52,806 nt of DNA. Origin: Escherichia virus TH24. The translations under genes were made by a program, and so were the position numbers. Each line of letters begins with the position of its first letter. Position 1 is the stretch's first letter. Below the pieces are notes generated by a model that made no database searches, was not told the origin of the DNA, and saw only the letters and a list, made by a program, of their open reading frames with translations. The stretch is from the sequence record MT446398.1. One strand, written 5' to 3'. Shown here piece after piece: positions 37,979-42,954 of the stretch.

Positions 37979-38844
37979 TTCCAGGCGGGTTTCTTCGAAG
38001 TGCCAAGCGGGTTTTGTACTCGCATTGGCCTTCGGCTTTAGTCTGAAACATTAGTGGGATTTGATTCTGACCTCTTAGGGAAGAAAGGCATTATAACCAA
38101 TCGCCAAATTGGTGTCAAGCACTTTCTTCATTTATTTTAATTTATTCTTATTATTCTTTTTGTTTGGAATATTGGAATAATTCTGAAACATTAATTGGAA
38201 TTGAAGAAACAACATCAGATAATAGCTTTGTAACTCGGTAGACCGTTACGGCCGATAACGTGCGAGAATGTTCGACTCATTCTACAAAGTTATTTTCGAT
38301 GGAATGTTTCCATCATATACATTTATCTTTTAACATAGGCCATAGGGCCGGAATACTTCTTCGCAGAAAAGCTATTCACTTGTTATAGGCGATGTATTGG
38401 GATGAATTGGAACTAAATAAGCAAGCTGTTAGGGCTGAATAATTAGAGGGTTGTGCCTCATGCTTATGTTAGTCATTCGAAAATAGGTTTGTGCCACAAG
38501 CCGCTGGTGCTCCGAGGAAGTCGGACAAACAGGGCTTAGAGTGGCATAATCCGCACAAAACCAAGCCACCAGCCACGCCAACGCTGGGATTTGGGTGAAT
38601 GTATTGGGAAGGGTTACAAAGCCTCTGTGACCTCCGTAGCTTGCCAGGCTGCGGCGCAGTTATGATACGCAGGTCGCACCCTAACGGGAGTAATCCTTCG
38701 CCAATGCAGTTATCCAGAATTGACACAAACGGTAGGCAGTGGCCCGATTTTCGGCCTTCCTGCGCTACTCTGTGGCCTGTTTCATAGGCCAAAAGATGAG
38801 AAGAGAGAAGTCACAAACACTGAATCGAAAATTGGAGAGTTCCT
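37979..38844. other. ORF-free region with motif variants and a GC-rich segment (candidate structured RNA or regulatory region)
   Basis: 866 bp without RBS-supported ORF; promoter-motif variants at 38048 and 38188; the 38460-38800 segment is visibly GC-richer than the genome. Confidence 0.35.
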
Positions 38845-39162
38845 ATGATTCGAAAGCATTCTGCTAAAGTTTTGACGTTAAGAAATGTCGTAAGGTCTTA
38901 CAGCAACTGCGAAAATGAGACTATTCATTTCGTACTTATTGGTGGGTCGTGGTACTACAACGGTACATCAACCTTAAGTATGTTGCGCAAGGCTCAGAAG
39001 GACGGATTTTGGGAATGTGATATTAAATATATTCTCGAGGATAGTCCTAAGTTTAGCTACGAAGAAATCATCAAAGCTTTCTACCACGGCCCAAACAAGT
39101 CTATGCAAATCGCAACTCGCGAGTGGACAACTAACCAAACATTTTATGGAGTTCCATATTGA
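38845..39162 (+). CDS. Hypothetical protein
   Basis: 105 aa, GGAGAG RBS. Confidence 0.5.
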   Translation: MIRKHSAKVLTLRNVVRSYSNCENETIHFVLIGGSWYYNGTSTLSMLRKAQKDGFWECDIKYILEDSPKFSYEEIIKAFYHGPNKSMQIATREWTTNQTFYGVPY

Positions 39163-39449
39163 ACTTACAAGATAAATCCAAAGAAGAGTTGATTGAGATT
39201 ATCCAGAAAGAGCACGAACTCGCTGGCATCACAATCAACTTCGAACTCCGAGCAATGCAAGCTGTTGCTTTGGGTCATGGCCTAATGGCTACACTCATTC
39301 ATGCCAAGAATGTGTTAGGCGTTAACGACGAAAAATACCAAATTCTGGAGAAAGCTGCGCAAGAGCGGATTTCACAGTGCTTGGTTACATTAGTTGATTT
39401 GGGAATCGACGCAGAAACTGCGAACAAACGTATCCTACAAGGCCACTAA
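39159..39449 (+). CDS. Hypothetical protein
   Basis: 96 aa; TTG start overlapping the upstream TGA. Confidence 0.4.
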   Translation: MNLQDKSKEELIEIIQKEHELAGITINFELRAMQAVALGHGLMATLIHAKNVLGVNDEKYQILEKAAQERISQCLVTLVDLGIDAETANKRILQGH

Positions 39450-39450
39450 A

Positions 39451-40125
39451 ATGTCTTATCATGATGATGACAAAGAGATTGCACTATCAACGTGCAAGCA
39501 ATGGCTCAATGATAATGATGCCGTCTATCTTGCCAAGGAAGATGTTATCATTATGTGGGTCCATTTTAATCCAGAATCGAAGCGCGGTGAGTGGCAACGC
39601 TACAAGATGAAAGAGGCTTGTCGCATAATTAAGGCCACACGCGCTGGCTTCTCTGCTATGAAATATATCAAACCAGAGATGCTAATGCTAGCTGCACAGG
39701 AAGAAGAACGTGCATATAAGCAAGCTGTTAAATCCCGTTCAACTGTTCCTCCAGAGTTCTTTAATTTGGAGCGCGCTGGTCACTTCAACAATTTAGAAAT
39801 GTTGACGCTGTGCCTGTTGCAAGAATTAGTTGGAAGAGGACAAAACATTGAAGCTGTTTGCCTTGGGGAACTCATGAAAGAGTTGTTCTTGACAAAGGGC
39901 TTTACTGTGCCAAACCGAACTTTACGCTGGAAATTGTTGCGAGCTGTCGCGCAAGAAGCTGGTGTAGTTGTTCGTGACAGAACTAACCGACTTACCATTA
40001 CGGGAGTTGGGCGTTTTGTAGCAATCCAGATTGAGGGTTATGACGAATCAATCATCACTGAACTCACTGTCGCTGAGACAAAGGATTTGGTAATCAAAAC
40101 AATCGAACGATTCAATATGTATTGA
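39451..40125 (+). CDS. Hypothetical protein (224 aa)
   Basis: ATG 39451 immediately after the upstream stop (track start 39394 overlaps the upstream gene). Confidence 0.5.
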   Translation: MSYHDDDKEIALSTCKQWLNDNDAVYLAKEDVIIMWVHFNPESKRGEWQRYKMKEACRIIKATRAGFSAMKYIKPEMLMLAAQEEERAYKQAVKSRSTVPPEFFNLERAGHFNNLEMLTLCLLQELVGRGQNIEAVCLGELMKELFLTKGFTVPNRTLRWKLLRAVAQEAGVVVRDRTNRLTITGVGRFVAIQIEGYDESIITELTVAETKDLVIKTIERFNMY

Positions 40126-40154
40126 GTCGTTTGTTAAATCAGAGCAGTCCTGAC

Positions 40155-40172
40155 ACATTAATTGGATGTGAA
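40155..40172 (+). promoter_or_regulatory. Candidate phage-RNAP promoter (motif ACATTAATTGGATGTGAAAAG)
   Basis: Motif copy ~78 nt upstream of ATG 40249. Confidence 0.4.
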
Positions 40173-40248
40173 AAGAGAAAGGCTCTTTAATCTATCTACA
40201 GTCACGTCACCGTGGCGTGCAAAACTATTTAATATAAGGTATATACAA

Positions 40249-41429: not shown

Positions 41430-41522
41430 GGACGAGTAGCTCAGAAGGTCTGCTCTAGAGCTTAGTCAGGTAGAGCAATCTGTTCGACAGATGTGTCGTT
41501 GGTTCGAACCCAACCTCGTCCA
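41430..41522 (+). tRNA. Atypical tRNA-like gene, probably tRNA-Arg(UCG), with a 21-nt insertion between position 9 and the D-stem
   Basis: 7-bp acceptor stem GGACGAG/CTCGTCC, T-arm GTTGG-TTCGAAC-CCAAC, D-arm GCTT-AGTCAGGTA-GAGC, anticodon loop GTTCGAC; 93 nt total, extra segment GCTCAGAAGGTCTGCTCTAGA at 41439-41459. Confidence 0.4.
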
Positions 41523-41548
41523 CCCTTAACAACAAACATGGAGTCCTT

Positions 41549-41689
41549 ATGGATTTTGATGCATTAGACAATTTGGACTTCGGTGCTGCCGAAGAAGCAA
41601 TTGAAGAACTCAAGAAGAAGCAGGACGAAGAAGCAATCGTCCCTGGTGCTGGCGACAACGACTGCTCAAGTGGTGCGTGTGCCATTTAA
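41549..41689 (+). CDS. Small acidic protein (46 aa)
   Basis: GGAG RBS 5 nt upstream; MDFDALDNLDFGAAEEAIEELKKKQDEEAIVPGAGDNDCSSGACAI. Confidence 0.3.
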   Translation: MDFDALDNLDFGAAEEAIEELKKKQDEEAIVPGAGDNDCSSGACAI

Positions 41690-41697
41690 GGTGATTC

Positions 41698-41934
41698 ATG
41701 CAACAGCTTAAGTCAATATTTCTTGGCGTCTTGACTGCATTGGGGATTCTCCTTGCAGTGTTCCTCAAAGGTAAAAGCTCAGGCAAAGCCGAGGAGCGTC
41801 AGGAAGCCAAAGAGAAGCAATTCGATTCGTTAAAAGAATCTATCGAGATTAAATCGCATGTTCAGAAAGAAGTGTCTAGCAGTTCTGATAGCAATGTCGA
41901 TAGTGAGTTGCTCTCAAAGTGGGTTCGTAAGTGA
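41698..41934 (+). CDS. i-spanin-like protein (N-terminal TM helix)
   Basis: 78 aa; TM helix IFLGVLTALGILLAVFL then charged segment; an embedded lipoprotein ORF overlaps its 3' end in the +1 frame. Confidence 0.45.
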   Translation: MQQLKSIFLGVLTALGILLAVFLKGKSSGKAEERQEAKEKQFDSLKESIEIKSHVQKEVSSSSDSNVDSELLSKWVRK

Positions 41935-42067
41935 TTATTGCTTAATTGCACAACCAATATATTTGGATGTTGCAGAAGTGAAAGTTTTATCACGCGAAAC
42001 CAAAACACAGATTTTAGTCCACAACGAAACGTGGGCACAAAAGTGTTCGAAACTTACCCGACAGTGA
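41858..42067 (+). CDS. o-spanin-like lipoprotein (overlapped with i-spanin)
   Basis: MFRKKCLAVLIAMSIVSC with lipobox IVSC; starts inside the 41698 ORF in a different frame and extends past it. Confidence 0.45.
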   Translation: MFRKKCLAVLIAMSIVSCSQSGFVSDYCLIAQPIYLDVAEVKVLSRETKTQILVHNETWAQKCSKLTRQ

Positions 42068-42954
42068 GTGAACAAATGCTCGCCATCGCATTTCATTTGG
42101 CAGTCCGGTACGGGACTTTAAATACACGTATAATATGGTCGAGGGAGTGCGCGACTTTAAATAACGAGACTCTAGCTACTTGTAGTGTTGGTGGTGTAAT
42201 CCCATGCGTTTGGAAGTAGGACTCCAACTCAAACAAGCCTACAAATTGCTCTGGGCATAACAATTAAAATTGCTGCCTCCGAGGACGGAAGCCCCGTATT
42301 GAATGCGTGAAATTCAGGTAGCCACTTCCTAGAACAGTGGCCGGGAACAGACCTAGACAAAAGTGCTTGAGAACGTTAGCTCTGTCTTGCCAGCATTAAT
42401 GGCACGTTGGCCGCGTAAAGGCCACAGCGTCTGACCAACGTATCGGTCACCAAATTCAATGGATTCGTAGAGTTAATGAAACCTGCACGATGGGATAGGG
42501 ATGAAGCATCCGAGTCCGACTGTGTAATTGTGAACGCGGAGTTCACCGAATCCACCACTTTCCAAACAGTTATGCCTCTGTTCAAAAGGCTCAAGTGAGC
42601 GTCTGGCATACCGTAGCGATACGGCTCAGTTGCGCTGATTGTGATGTGTCGAAAGAAAGTTCAGGCTTTTGTTTGAGTTCCTCCTCATCTCGAAGTTAGC
42701 TGGATTCAAAATCCAGACTATGTTCCTATTCACATGAAATATGCAAGCCAGGGTTCTTAATATCTGACATAGGTATTAAGCGGGTTTATACTTTTCCCCG
42801 ATGGTCCCCATAAACAAGGTTGATTCACTTGGGCGGTTCGAATCAAATTTAATAAGTGTCTTGGCCGCAGTGGAAACATCATTTAAGCCAATATATTGTA
42901 ATGTTCGTAATAGTCCACGTCAGGGCACTTACTTAAATTTAACTGGAGAGAAAC

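Follow-up and report, generated by a model that had tools for sequence, protein, structure and literature searches.

Transfer-messenger RNA (tmRNA, SsrA) carries an A/U-rich single-stranded lead-in followed by a reading frame without a start codon, which begins GCA-AAY-GAY (Ala-Asn-Asp) and ends in Ala-Ala and a stop codon; the tag encoded in enterobacteria is ANDENYALAA. The stable RNAs of the T4 transfer RNA (tRNA) cluster (species 1 and 2, rnaC/rnaD) and the tRNA-like modules of bacterial Y RNAs have tRNA-like ends or arms and do not decode, and their function has long been unexplained. GOLLD and ROOL are ornate phage or prophage non-coding RNAs of 500-800 nucleotides (nt) that lie near or around tRNA genes, and the primary origin of T7 consists of promoters phi1.1A and phi1.1B together with an AT-rich region. 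Elements resembling each of these were identified in three gaps between genes of Escherichia virus TH24 (sequence record MT446398.1; 52,806 nt, this whole stretch being called the window): gap 1 (37979-38844), gap 2 (40588-41548) and gap 3 (42068-42954). The gaps hold conserved, Cleopatravirinae-specific structured non-coding RNA of the plus strand, presumably transcribed, either as RNA genes or as large transcribed blocks, and gap 2 contains a module that probably corresponds to the messenger half of a tmRNA.

Like T4 species 1 and 2 and the Y RNAs, the TH24 RNAs include non-decoding units with tRNA-like ends; the known RNAs are co-transcribed with tRNAs and are probably cut out by tRNA-processing enzymes. 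They are 100-140 nt long, whereas the TH24 units are embedded in pseudoknotted folds of 600-900 nt, and no sequence kinship is claimed. With GOLLD and ROOL the TH24 RNAs share size, many helices and pseudoknots, a phage and tRNA context, and palindromic loops that possibly self-associate (here AUUAAU in hairpin H3 of gap 2), but they have no Rfam match, and their hosts are Enterobacteria and Aeromonas rather than Firmicutes or rumen bacteria.

Conservation and coding potential of the three gaps

By sequence similarity, the window was assigned to a Carltongylesvirus-like phage (Chaseviridae, Cleopatravirinae) related to ST32, phiEcoM-GJ1, MLP1, SA91KD and Mangalitsa. The 6-kb region around the gaps matched 51 phage records with 85-95% identity, almost all from Escherichia or Yersinia phages. 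Record PP952070.1, 'Staphylococcus phage Pel53' (stated host S. hyicus), shares ~90% identity with these coliphages throughout the region, and its host label looks doubtful. Genera were compared using Sabourvirus (4HA13), Faunusvirus (Faunus), Loessnervirus (Y2, Fifi44, SSEM1), Suwonvirus (PM1), Myducvirus (Myduc) and Aeromonas phage phiA050. All genes of TH24 and all eight copies of its phage-polymerase promoter motif lie on the plus strand.

The initial annotation had listed 37979-38844, 40588-41429 and 42068-42954 as free of open reading frames (ORFs) supported by a ribosome-binding site, and such stretches were found at these positions, with neither a codon-phase signal nor a PHROG match; the second proved longer than described and extends to 41548, since 41430-41526 is a tRNA-like gene and not a protein gene. 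For the codon-phase test, 13 genus-level genomes were aligned, and variable sites were counted per codon phase and evaluated by chi-square. No third-position excess was seen in the 11 gap ORFs of at least 40 amino acids (aa; p 0.19-0.94) or in the whole gaps, and a strong excess was found in 9 of 11 flanking genes (for example g224, 31/16/107, p 7e-21). None of ten gap ORFs matched a PHROG family, and missed protein genes were rejected on these tests and scans. Deposited annotations for MLP1, SA91KD, Mangalitsa, Faunus, 4HA13, phiEcoM-GJ1, Y2, PM1, Fifi44 and others leave these three places empty or give tiny, inconsistent ORF calls there.

Conservation among related phages, on which the initial annotation had staked its proposal, is clearly present within the genus and across genera. 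Mean pairwise identity of the gaps in the genus equals or exceeds that of neighbouring genes (37981-38220, 96-97%; 40981-41280, 92-97%; 42781-42960, 97-99%). Coding DNA of phiA050 and TH24 is ~70% identical, and islands within all three gaps are 73-83% identical, with one 25-nt stretch at 100%. Profile searches recovered all three regions, with gene order preserved, in Sabourvirus, Faunusvirus, Loessnervirus and Suwonvirus, and short motifs only in Myducvirus; the conserved islands span at least six genera. At the corresponding position in the sister subfamily (pAh6-C), the region is compact and the gaps are absent. A GC-rich part, also noted initially, was confirmed (GC 0.507 at 38401-38800 vs ~0.43 around it); host-derived DNA was rejected as its origin, with no match in 5,426 E. 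coli genomes.

Comparative folding, which had been suggested together with a covariance-model scan, gave folds supported by compensatory changes in samples of 12-21 distinct sequences, many of them closely related, with several helices read by eye from alignments. The compensatory changes preserve pairs, among them G-U pairs that are valid on one strand only, which indicates selection at the RNA level; many of the G-U pairs in the gap folds would be A-C on the other strand, which argues for structure of the plus strand. Structured RNAs and large regulatory regions had both been proposed and both were found: the first ~240 nt of gap 1 (37979-38220) are regulatory, with promoters, a terminator and an AT-rich tract, and do not belong to the structured RNA, whereas the remainder of the three gaps is covarying structured RNA. 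The covariance-model scan gave no Rfam match at the gathering score in any gap, only weak tRNA and tmRNA matches at E up to 10, and no match even at E = 10 to GOLLD, ROOL, other large Rfam RNAs, group I or II introns or RNase P RNA. A literature search found no paper describing these RNAs and none linking Chaseviridae to tmRNA beyond software citations; prior traces are limited to an odd tRNA annotation in phiEcoM-GJ1 and 'promoter' and 'terminator' features in SA91KD.

The tag module of gap 2 and its relation to tmRNA

The frame GCA AAT GAT TCT GAA ATG CGA GTT GCA GCT TAA in gap 2 (Table 1) encodes ANDSEMRVAA*, which is close to the enterobacterial tag. It lies in a block of ~150 nt whose conservation extends to all genera checked (E 1e-30 to 1e-50), PM1 and Myduc excepted, and it is under constraint. 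Its nucleotide changes across genera are mostly synonymous (AAC/AAT, CGA/CGT/CGC, GTT/GTA/GTG, GCA/GCG/GCC/GCT and GCT/GCC), and the non-synonymous variants, ANDNEMRAAA and ANDSEMRMVA, remain of tmRNA type. When the upstream sequence was read by hand, in-frame stops were found six codons 5' (TAA, phiEcoM-GJ1 type) or nine codons 5' (TGA, 4HA13), and because no ATG, GTG or TTG lies between, the frame is not an ordinary ORF. An overlapping ATG frame has premature stops in 4HA13 and Faunus.

The stop codon lies in a hairpin that is followed by a pseudoknot. For these two elements, 97.8% of cells were paired in 14 distinct sequences, five pairs were double-changed (22 cells), none of 500 shuffles was as good, and the pairing collapsed in slid controls; compensatory double changes affect three pairs of the pseudoknot (UA/AU, CG/UA and GC/AU). 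Hairpin H3, further 3', has eight different stem sequences, all complementary, around the invariant loop GNUNUGAUUAAUAAN. The self-complementary palindrome AUUAAU within this loop (41129-41143) could allow a kissing-loop dimer. Local alignment of the module with E. coli ssrA gave z = 4.5 over the lead-in, tag, helix 5 and the first strand of pseudoknot PK2. Rfam tmRNA-family models match the tag site weakly in five genera, with up to 27 bits (E = 4e-4), and the match ends exactly at the stop.

Phage tmRNAs are known, with 79 unique sequences in the 2025 tmRNA database (PMC11915505). With tmRNAs, including those of phages and the permuted two-piece forms, the gap 2 module shares the A/U-rich single-stranded lead-in and a start-less GCA-AAY-GAY frame, which opens at an Ala codon and ends in hydrophobic-Ala-Ala and a stop codon. 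The stop is held in a hairpin resembling helix 5, an H-type pseudoknot resembling PK2 stands directly 3', and more pseudoknots are nearby. As in permuted tmRNA genes, a helix encloses a variable 'intervening' segment just 5' of the tag, so that the outline reads hairpin, strand, variable segment, complementary strand, U-rich stretch and tag.

A number of results weigh against a functional, translated tmRNA-type module. The tag frame was not found in PM1 and Myduc, and the evidence from its changes comprises about ten substitutions, some within the hairpin stem, and lends modest support to translation. No canonical tRNA-like domain (acceptor with G3-U70, T-loop arm and CCA) is joined to the tag in TH24 or in >30 relatives. 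ARAGORN with default settings reported no tmRNA in the TH24 window, in >30 relatives or in 10 metagenome and IMG/VR loci; relaxed settings, applied to 10 relatives, gave a 'permuted tmRNA' with this tag, but with poor domains that are not homologous between genera. Scores of the Rfam tmRNA models (RF00023, RF01849-51, RF04321) stayed below gathering, with 21 bits (gathering 47) and 15.3 bits (50) in TH24 and 27.2 bits (50) in SSEM1. The tRNA-like units of the gaps are not of Ala type, have no G3-U70 and stand by themselves, without the connection to the tag that one- or two-piece tmRNAs have. A hairpin CAGGC/GCCUG 5' of the tag occurs in Carltongylesvirus and 4HA13 and is absent in other genera; an upstream pseudoknot PK1 does not appear to be conserved.

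Searches for the missing half did not find one. Rfam detected no tmRNA tRNA-like domain anywhere in the genome, and neither a T-arm scan nor a search for strands complementary to candidate acceptor strands found one for the tag; gap 2 has a single canonical T-arm, that of the 41430-41526 unit, which has A3-U70. Hairpin A with the long-range helix (Table 1) was considered as a permuted T-arm and acceptor but not adopted: the topology fits, but there is no T-loop, G-U or CCA, and the helix is 13-14 base pairs (bp) long. RNAduplex of the gap 3 tRNA-like unit against the gap 2 RNA gave no interpretable result. The ANDSEMRVAA tag had no bacterial donor among 185,579 species genomes, and searches of IMG/VR with tag and gap 1 patterns gave mostly chance matches outside Chaseviridae-sized contigs, as judged by inspection of the flanks. 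Because the test for a tRNA-like domain failed, the module was not classed as a tmRNA; it corresponds, probably by descent, to the messenger half of one.

Other elements of gap 2 are modular. The helix and stem of pseudoknot module B covary (Faunus GAGUGCAUUGU/ACAGUGCAUUC; SSEM1 CGGG/CCCG), and the module lies 5' of the tag in TH24 and 3' of it in 4HA13, Faunus, Fifi44 and SSEM1. It looks inserted at a duplicated CUUCAAU. HNH homing-endonuclease genes occur in or beside the RNA regions of 4HA13, Pel53 and DE15 (L009 6529-6960; L019 6762-7202 and 5011-5502; L022 7659-8105), in 4HA13 between the tag module and module B, which is consistent with homing into conserved RNA genes. The strands of the long-range helix differ between genera yet remain complementary (Loessnervirus CUUCUGGAUGA/UCAUCCAGAAG, Faunus CUUCAAUGAACAUC/GGUGUUCAUUGAAG, 4HA13 CUUCAAUUUGUGCA/UGUACAAAUUGAAG), and the domain within it is deleted in most of the genus. 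A 'long form' of 40756-40942 with a covarying GUGCAC/GUGCAC helix was seen in TH24, SA91KD, phiA050 and Loessnervirus, and a short replacement in several Carltongylesvirus phages (such as phiEcoM-GJ1) and in 4HA13.

The 41430-41526 unit did not pass as a tRNA with a regular cloverleaf and 7-nt anticodon loop. The Rfam tRNA model gave 25.6 bits, below the gathering score of 29, and matched model positions 9-63 only. Default ARAGORN reported nothing here in TH24 and assigned a Leu, Ser or '???' anticodon in relatives; the equivalent in phiEcoM-GJ1 is annotated 'tRNA-Arg, may contain an intron'.

Architecture of gaps 1 and 3

The phage promoter family comprises eight plus-strand copies, a number of matches reached in none of 100 shuffles, and two of the copies stand in tandem in the regulatory segment of gap 1. 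Between them lies a minus-strand sigma70 promoter that opposes every phage gene; both of its hexamers are kept in 13 of 13 genus relatives, where the spacer is 18 nt. It could prime replication or yield antisense RNA to the early operon. As in the T7 primary origin, tandem phage promoters (here 140 nt apart) flank an AT-rich tract, and the phage has a single-subunit RNA polymerase and a T7-type primase/helicase; the layout is limited to 37979-38220, however, and here a consensus host promoter opposes it. The segment thus has the layout of a T7-type primary origin, and by this resemblance may act as one. In many relatives, cassettes of 125-229 nt directly follow promoter 2 and are flanked by a repeated promoter copy (for example L002 2061-2200, L003 2201-2377 and L019 3620-3796). 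Some cassettes carry a 58-aa ORF with Cys pairs (Mangalitsa, Pel53), others are non-coding (SA91KD, ST32, DE15, TH26), and TH24, MLP1, TH23 and Bp7 have none.

The structured RNA of gap 1 is ~630 nt long, with a fold z of -6.1 on the plus strand vs -4.2 on the minus strand, relative to shuffles. Its core motif AGCUGNUAGGGCUGA was present in all Cleopatravirinae genera examined, Myduc and PM1 among them, and the closing helix around it covaries (GGUACGA/UCGUAUC, UGUAACCA/UGGUUACA, AUAAUGA/UCAUUAU). All three helices of the tRNA-like domain upstream covary in the phiEcoM-GJ1 type (AGAGCUUUGUA/UACAAAGCUCU, CGUCU/AGACG, AGAACG/CGUUCU), and the domain is swapped for other modules in MLP1 and in Pel53 and Faunus. 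The consensus fold of the GC-rich body (RNAalifold) contains 93 pairs, 22 of them with compensatory changes; its hypervariable tip exists as two alternative 'alleles', each able to pair. Gap 1 is 86-95% identical across records, vs ~70% for the following gene. This 105-aa gene (38845-39162) is the most divergent in the region (~70% nucleotide identity, 68% of sites variable), without clear codon-phase bias and without a Pfam or PHROG family. An RNase P RNA, suspected in gap 1 from 'GAGGAAGUCGGAC', was rejected: alignment with M1 RNA was no better than with shuffles (z ~0 for gaps 1 and 3), and there was no Rfam match.

Gap 3 is one large conserved RNA region of ~800 nt (E 3e-87 to Faunus, 1e-53 to 4HA13 and phiA050) with large lineage-specific insertions and a core containing eight compensatory pairs. 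The seven Watson-Crick pairs and RCCA tail (ACCA or GCCA) of its tRNA-like domain are present in all genus variants and in Faunus, so that acceptor, discriminator and CCA are all in place; a 5-nt loop takes the place of the T-loop, and the acceptor stem shows no covariation. The long arm covaries between TH24 and Faunus. In phiA050, the equivalent position holds a canonical T-arm, CGAGG-UUCAACU-CCUCG, and after it GCUGCC-ACCA, and tRNA or near-tRNA genes are found in gap 3 of Loessnervirus, PM1 and Myduc. Faunus carries a second CCA-ending tRNA-like unit (GGACUCA…UGAGUCC-ACCA) directly after the first (L008 8515-8625). In Myduc, a putative CCA-adding nucleotidyltransferase gene directly follows gap 3, where TH24 has thyX (L013 8868-9437), and pAh6-C likewise encodes a nucleotidyltransferase (L121 3556-4242); these genes fit tRNA-end-related biology in Chaseviridae.

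Both stems of the following pseudoknot vary in compensated fashion (Pel53 AUAG/CUAU with GCGU/ACGC; 4HA13 CUGG/CCAG with UUCU/AGAA; Faunus GUGG/CCAC). The loop CCUCCUC (42678-42688) and the invariant GGGAGG of module B (40714-40720) are complementary, which makes a contact between both RNAs, or with Shine-Dalgarno sequences, possible. The perfect hairpin CTGGAT-tcaaa-ATCCAG pointed out initially exists, at 42700-42716 rather than 42695-42711, and is one variable helix of a much larger fold. It was rejected as a T-arm because its loop shows no conservation and phiA050 lacks the hairpin.

Two further gaps of the window, 27279-27860 and 29844-31065, share three phage promoter copies and six copies of the 17-nt near-palindrome AATATTGTNACAATATT (27369-27385, 27519-27535, 29890-29906, 30300-30316, 30427-30443 and 30549-30565). 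The array looks like an operator or repeat array of an early control region.

Table 1. Coordinates of features in the three gaps, in window positions (dot, no strand).
Region	Coordinates	Strand	Feature	Basis and remarks
Gap 1	37997..38041	+	Terminator-like hairpins after 78-aa ORF	Sequence; rho-independent terminator annotated there in SA91KD; 96% genus identity
Gap 1	38042..38064 (promoter at 38048)	+	Phage RNA polymerase promoter copy 1 (…ACATTAGTGGGATTTGA)	Annotated phage promoter in phiEcoM-GJ1 and SA91KD
Gap 1	38090..38118	-	Consensus sigma70 promoter TTGACA-17-TATAAT, 12/12	Sequence
Gap 1	38125..38181	.	AT-rich tract between both phage promoters	Sequence; 97% genus identity
Gap 1	38182..38204 (promoter at 38188)	+	Phage RNA polymerase promoter copy 2	Likely start of gap 1 RNA
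Gap 1	38222..38293	+	tRNA-like domain: 11-bp helix, 5-bp arm with 7-nt loop, T-arm AGAAUG-UUCGACU-CAUUCU	T-arm scan; T-loop canonical
Gap 1	38417..38467	+	Core element: closing helix AUAAGCA/UGCUUAU around invariant AGCUGUUAGGGCUGAAUAAUU, plus variable hairpin	
Gap 1	38468..38830	+	GC-rich structured body, long irregular helices, hypervariable tip 38609-38668	Conserved in 4HA13, phiA050, Faunus
Gap 2	40629..40660	+	Terminator-like hairpin after 112-aa gene	Sequence; terminator annotated there in SA91KD
Gap 2	40660..40691	+	Hairpin A (UUGAA-CCCAUUC…GAGUGGG-UUCAA)	Conserved in 4HA13, Faunus, phiA050; fold
Gap 2	40693..40760	+	Module B: 12-bp helix closing pseudoknot (UGGG…GGCC…CCCA…GGCC), invariant GGGAGG	Fold z = -2.95
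Gap 2	40771..40955	+	Long-range helix CUUCAAUAUGGAU (40771-83) / AUCCAUAUUGAAG (40943-55) around variable domain	Read from alignment
Gap 2	41019..41061	+	tmRNA-like lead-in (AAAAUAAAU), A/U-rich, and tag frame	Frame GCA…TAA at 41029-41061
Gap 2	41055..41074	+	Hairpin holding stop codon, like tmRNA helix 5	Outer pair A-U, G-C, C-G, G-U; second pair U-A in 12 sequences, C-G in 2
Gap 2	41080..41112	+	H-type pseudoknot directly after tag (CGUGG/CCAUG; CCAA/UUGG)	100% of cells paired
Gap 2	41122..41150	+	Hairpin H3, invariant 15-nt loop GAUGUGAUUAAUAAA	Annotated 'terminator' in SA91KD
Gap 2	41430..41526	+	Aberrant tRNA, 97 nt: acceptor GGACGAG/CUCGUCC, normal T-arm, extra arm/insertion, no stable anticodon	
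Gap 3	42114..42163	+	Two GACTTTAAATA copies flanking GUCGAGGGAGUGCGCGAC, 5' end of gap 3 RNA	Block conserved in Faunus, phiA050, Loessnervirus
Gap 3	42461..42557	+	CCA-ending tRNA-like domain: GGAUUCG…long arm…GUGAAC-GCGGA-GUUCAC…CGAAUCC-ACCA	
Gap 3	42566..42590	+	Pseudoknot ACAG…GCCU…CUGU…AGGC	Both stems covary
Gap 3	42598..42640	+	Three-tier hairpin, GNRA cap (CCGUA-GCGA-UACGG)	Nearly invariant across genera; 4HA13 GUGUA-GCGA-UACAC, two compensatory pairs
Gap 3	42672..42694	+	Hairpin UUUGAG/CUCGAA, anti-Shine-Dalgarno-like loop UUCCUCCUCAU	Loop conserved; pair 131/145 A-U in 7 sequences, G-C in 5
Gap 3	42700..42716	+	Initially annotated hairpin; sequence varies, pairing kept	Variants CUGUA/UGCAG, CUAU/AUAG, GAGUA/UACUC; deleted in phiA050
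Gap 3	42820..42846	+	Hairpin UUGAUUC/GAAUCAA, conserved 13-nt loop ACUUGGGCGGUUC	Stem covaries (Faunus AGUCC/GGACU, phiA050 GGUC/GACC); surrounding 42781-42960 97-99% genus identity

Competing explanations and proposed role

Normal tRNA genes in the same gaps of related genera (PM1 tRNA-Cys, Myduc tRNA-Arg), the degenerate look of the TH24 tRNA-like units and the small ORFs called in the gaps by some annotators might suggest remnants of a decaying tRNA/tmRNA cluster or unrecognised small protein genes. This is largely refuted and highly improbable: the gaps match genes in conservation, islands persist between genera with protein identities of 62-82%, covariation is widespread, and the gap ORFs show no codon-phase signal and no protein-family match. 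Elements acting at the DNA level (a replication origin, packaging signals or protein-binding arrays), with incidental RNA folds, were given equally little weight, since the compensatory changes, including G-U pairs valid on one strand only, point to selection on RNA; the T7-origin layout at 37979-38220, the conserved strong host promoter on the other strand and the T7-type primase/helicase of the phage do favour such a role, but for ~240 nt of ~2.7 kb. The gaps might instead be parts of messenger RNAs acting in cis, as processing sites (for RNase P, Z, E or III), stabilisers or translational controls of the genes starting at 38845, 41549 and 42955. In favour of this, every gap runs up to a gene's ribosome-binding site, identity is 97-99% in the final 150 nt of gap 3, gaps 2 and 3 lack a promoter of their own, the tRNA-like units are natural substrates of RNase P and Z, and terminator-like hairpins flank the modules. 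Against this, 600-900 nt of conserved pseudoknotted structure far exceed the needs of known leaders, modules shift relative to genes between genera, and the tag frame is left unexplained; moreover, conservation in the region is lowest in the gene that follows gap 1 (~70% identity), and in some relatives another gene separates it from the RNA, which is 86-95% identical. A cis-acting role of this kind was judged unlikely.

Somewhat more weight, though still little, was given to the view that the RNAs mimic tRNA and tmRNA as decoys or sponges for host factors, blocking host ribosome rescue or shielding real tRNAs; SmpB, ribosomal protein S1, RNase R, the CCA-adding enzyme, anticodon nucleases and tRNA-targeting anti-phage defences are the proposed targets. 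In three tRNA-like units the acceptor and T regions are intact and a stable anticodon is lacking, and the tag module has no tRNA-like partner. Invariant loops on varying stems are as expected of binding sites, and the anti-Shine-Dalgarno-like CCUCC loop, the invariant GGGAGG and the position of the loci in the early/middle region, adjoining an anti-restriction gene, would also suit this view. Decoy action alone, however, leaves the synonymous bias of the tag changes and the tmRNA-like peptide unexplained, and no partner protein was found, neighbouring proteins having no informative Pfam or PHROG domains.

With high confidence, the gaps can be called loci of conserved, structured non-coding RNA that include a tmRNA-derived module. 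As compared among relatives, the gap RNAs are assembled from tRNA- and tmRNA-derived modules that were shuffled, duplicated and swapped between related phages. Actual use of the tag in a trans-translation-like reaction is a tentative proposal, and doubtful. Taken as one, structured RNA loci together with use of the tag were preferred as the best explanation overall, with restrained confidence that reflects both parts.

In the reaction so proposed, the gap 1 RNA would probably start from the second tandem phage promoter (38188), and gaps 2 and 3, which have no promoter of their own in TH24, would presumably lie within a long transcript from the 40155 promoter, where the tRNA-like units 41430-41526 and 42461-42557 could offer excision sites to host tRNA-processing enzymes. 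Stalled host ribosomes might then be switched onto the start-less frame, as in trans-translation, and incomplete proteins made during infection would gain a phage-specified tag that replaces or competes with the host ANDENYALAA. More speculatively, and with low expectation, the locus may encode a new kind of ribosome-rescue RNA, a tmRNA messenger half without a covalent canonical tRNA-like half, which would be delivered by a separate CCA-ending tRNA-like RNA or a phage factor and would relabel stalled products; the ~600- and ~800-nt RNAs would then be undescribed classes of large RNA, the first in phages of Enterobacteria.

These phages are under development for use in therapy and biocontrol, and in routine annotation the gaps are covered by small spurious ORFs, odd 'tRNA' calls and 'terminators'. 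Current understanding of trans-translation does not account for a tmRNA-type tag frame without a recognisable tRNA-like partner. The two larger RNAs, if autonomous, would be enterobacterial phage additions to the few very large RNAs of bacteria and phages, in a system of easy genetics (an E. coli host and a 53-kb phage). In a lytic phage with a small, tightly packed genome, about 5% of the sequence is given to structured RNA that several genera retain, and its maintenance by such strong selection implies a real role in infection.

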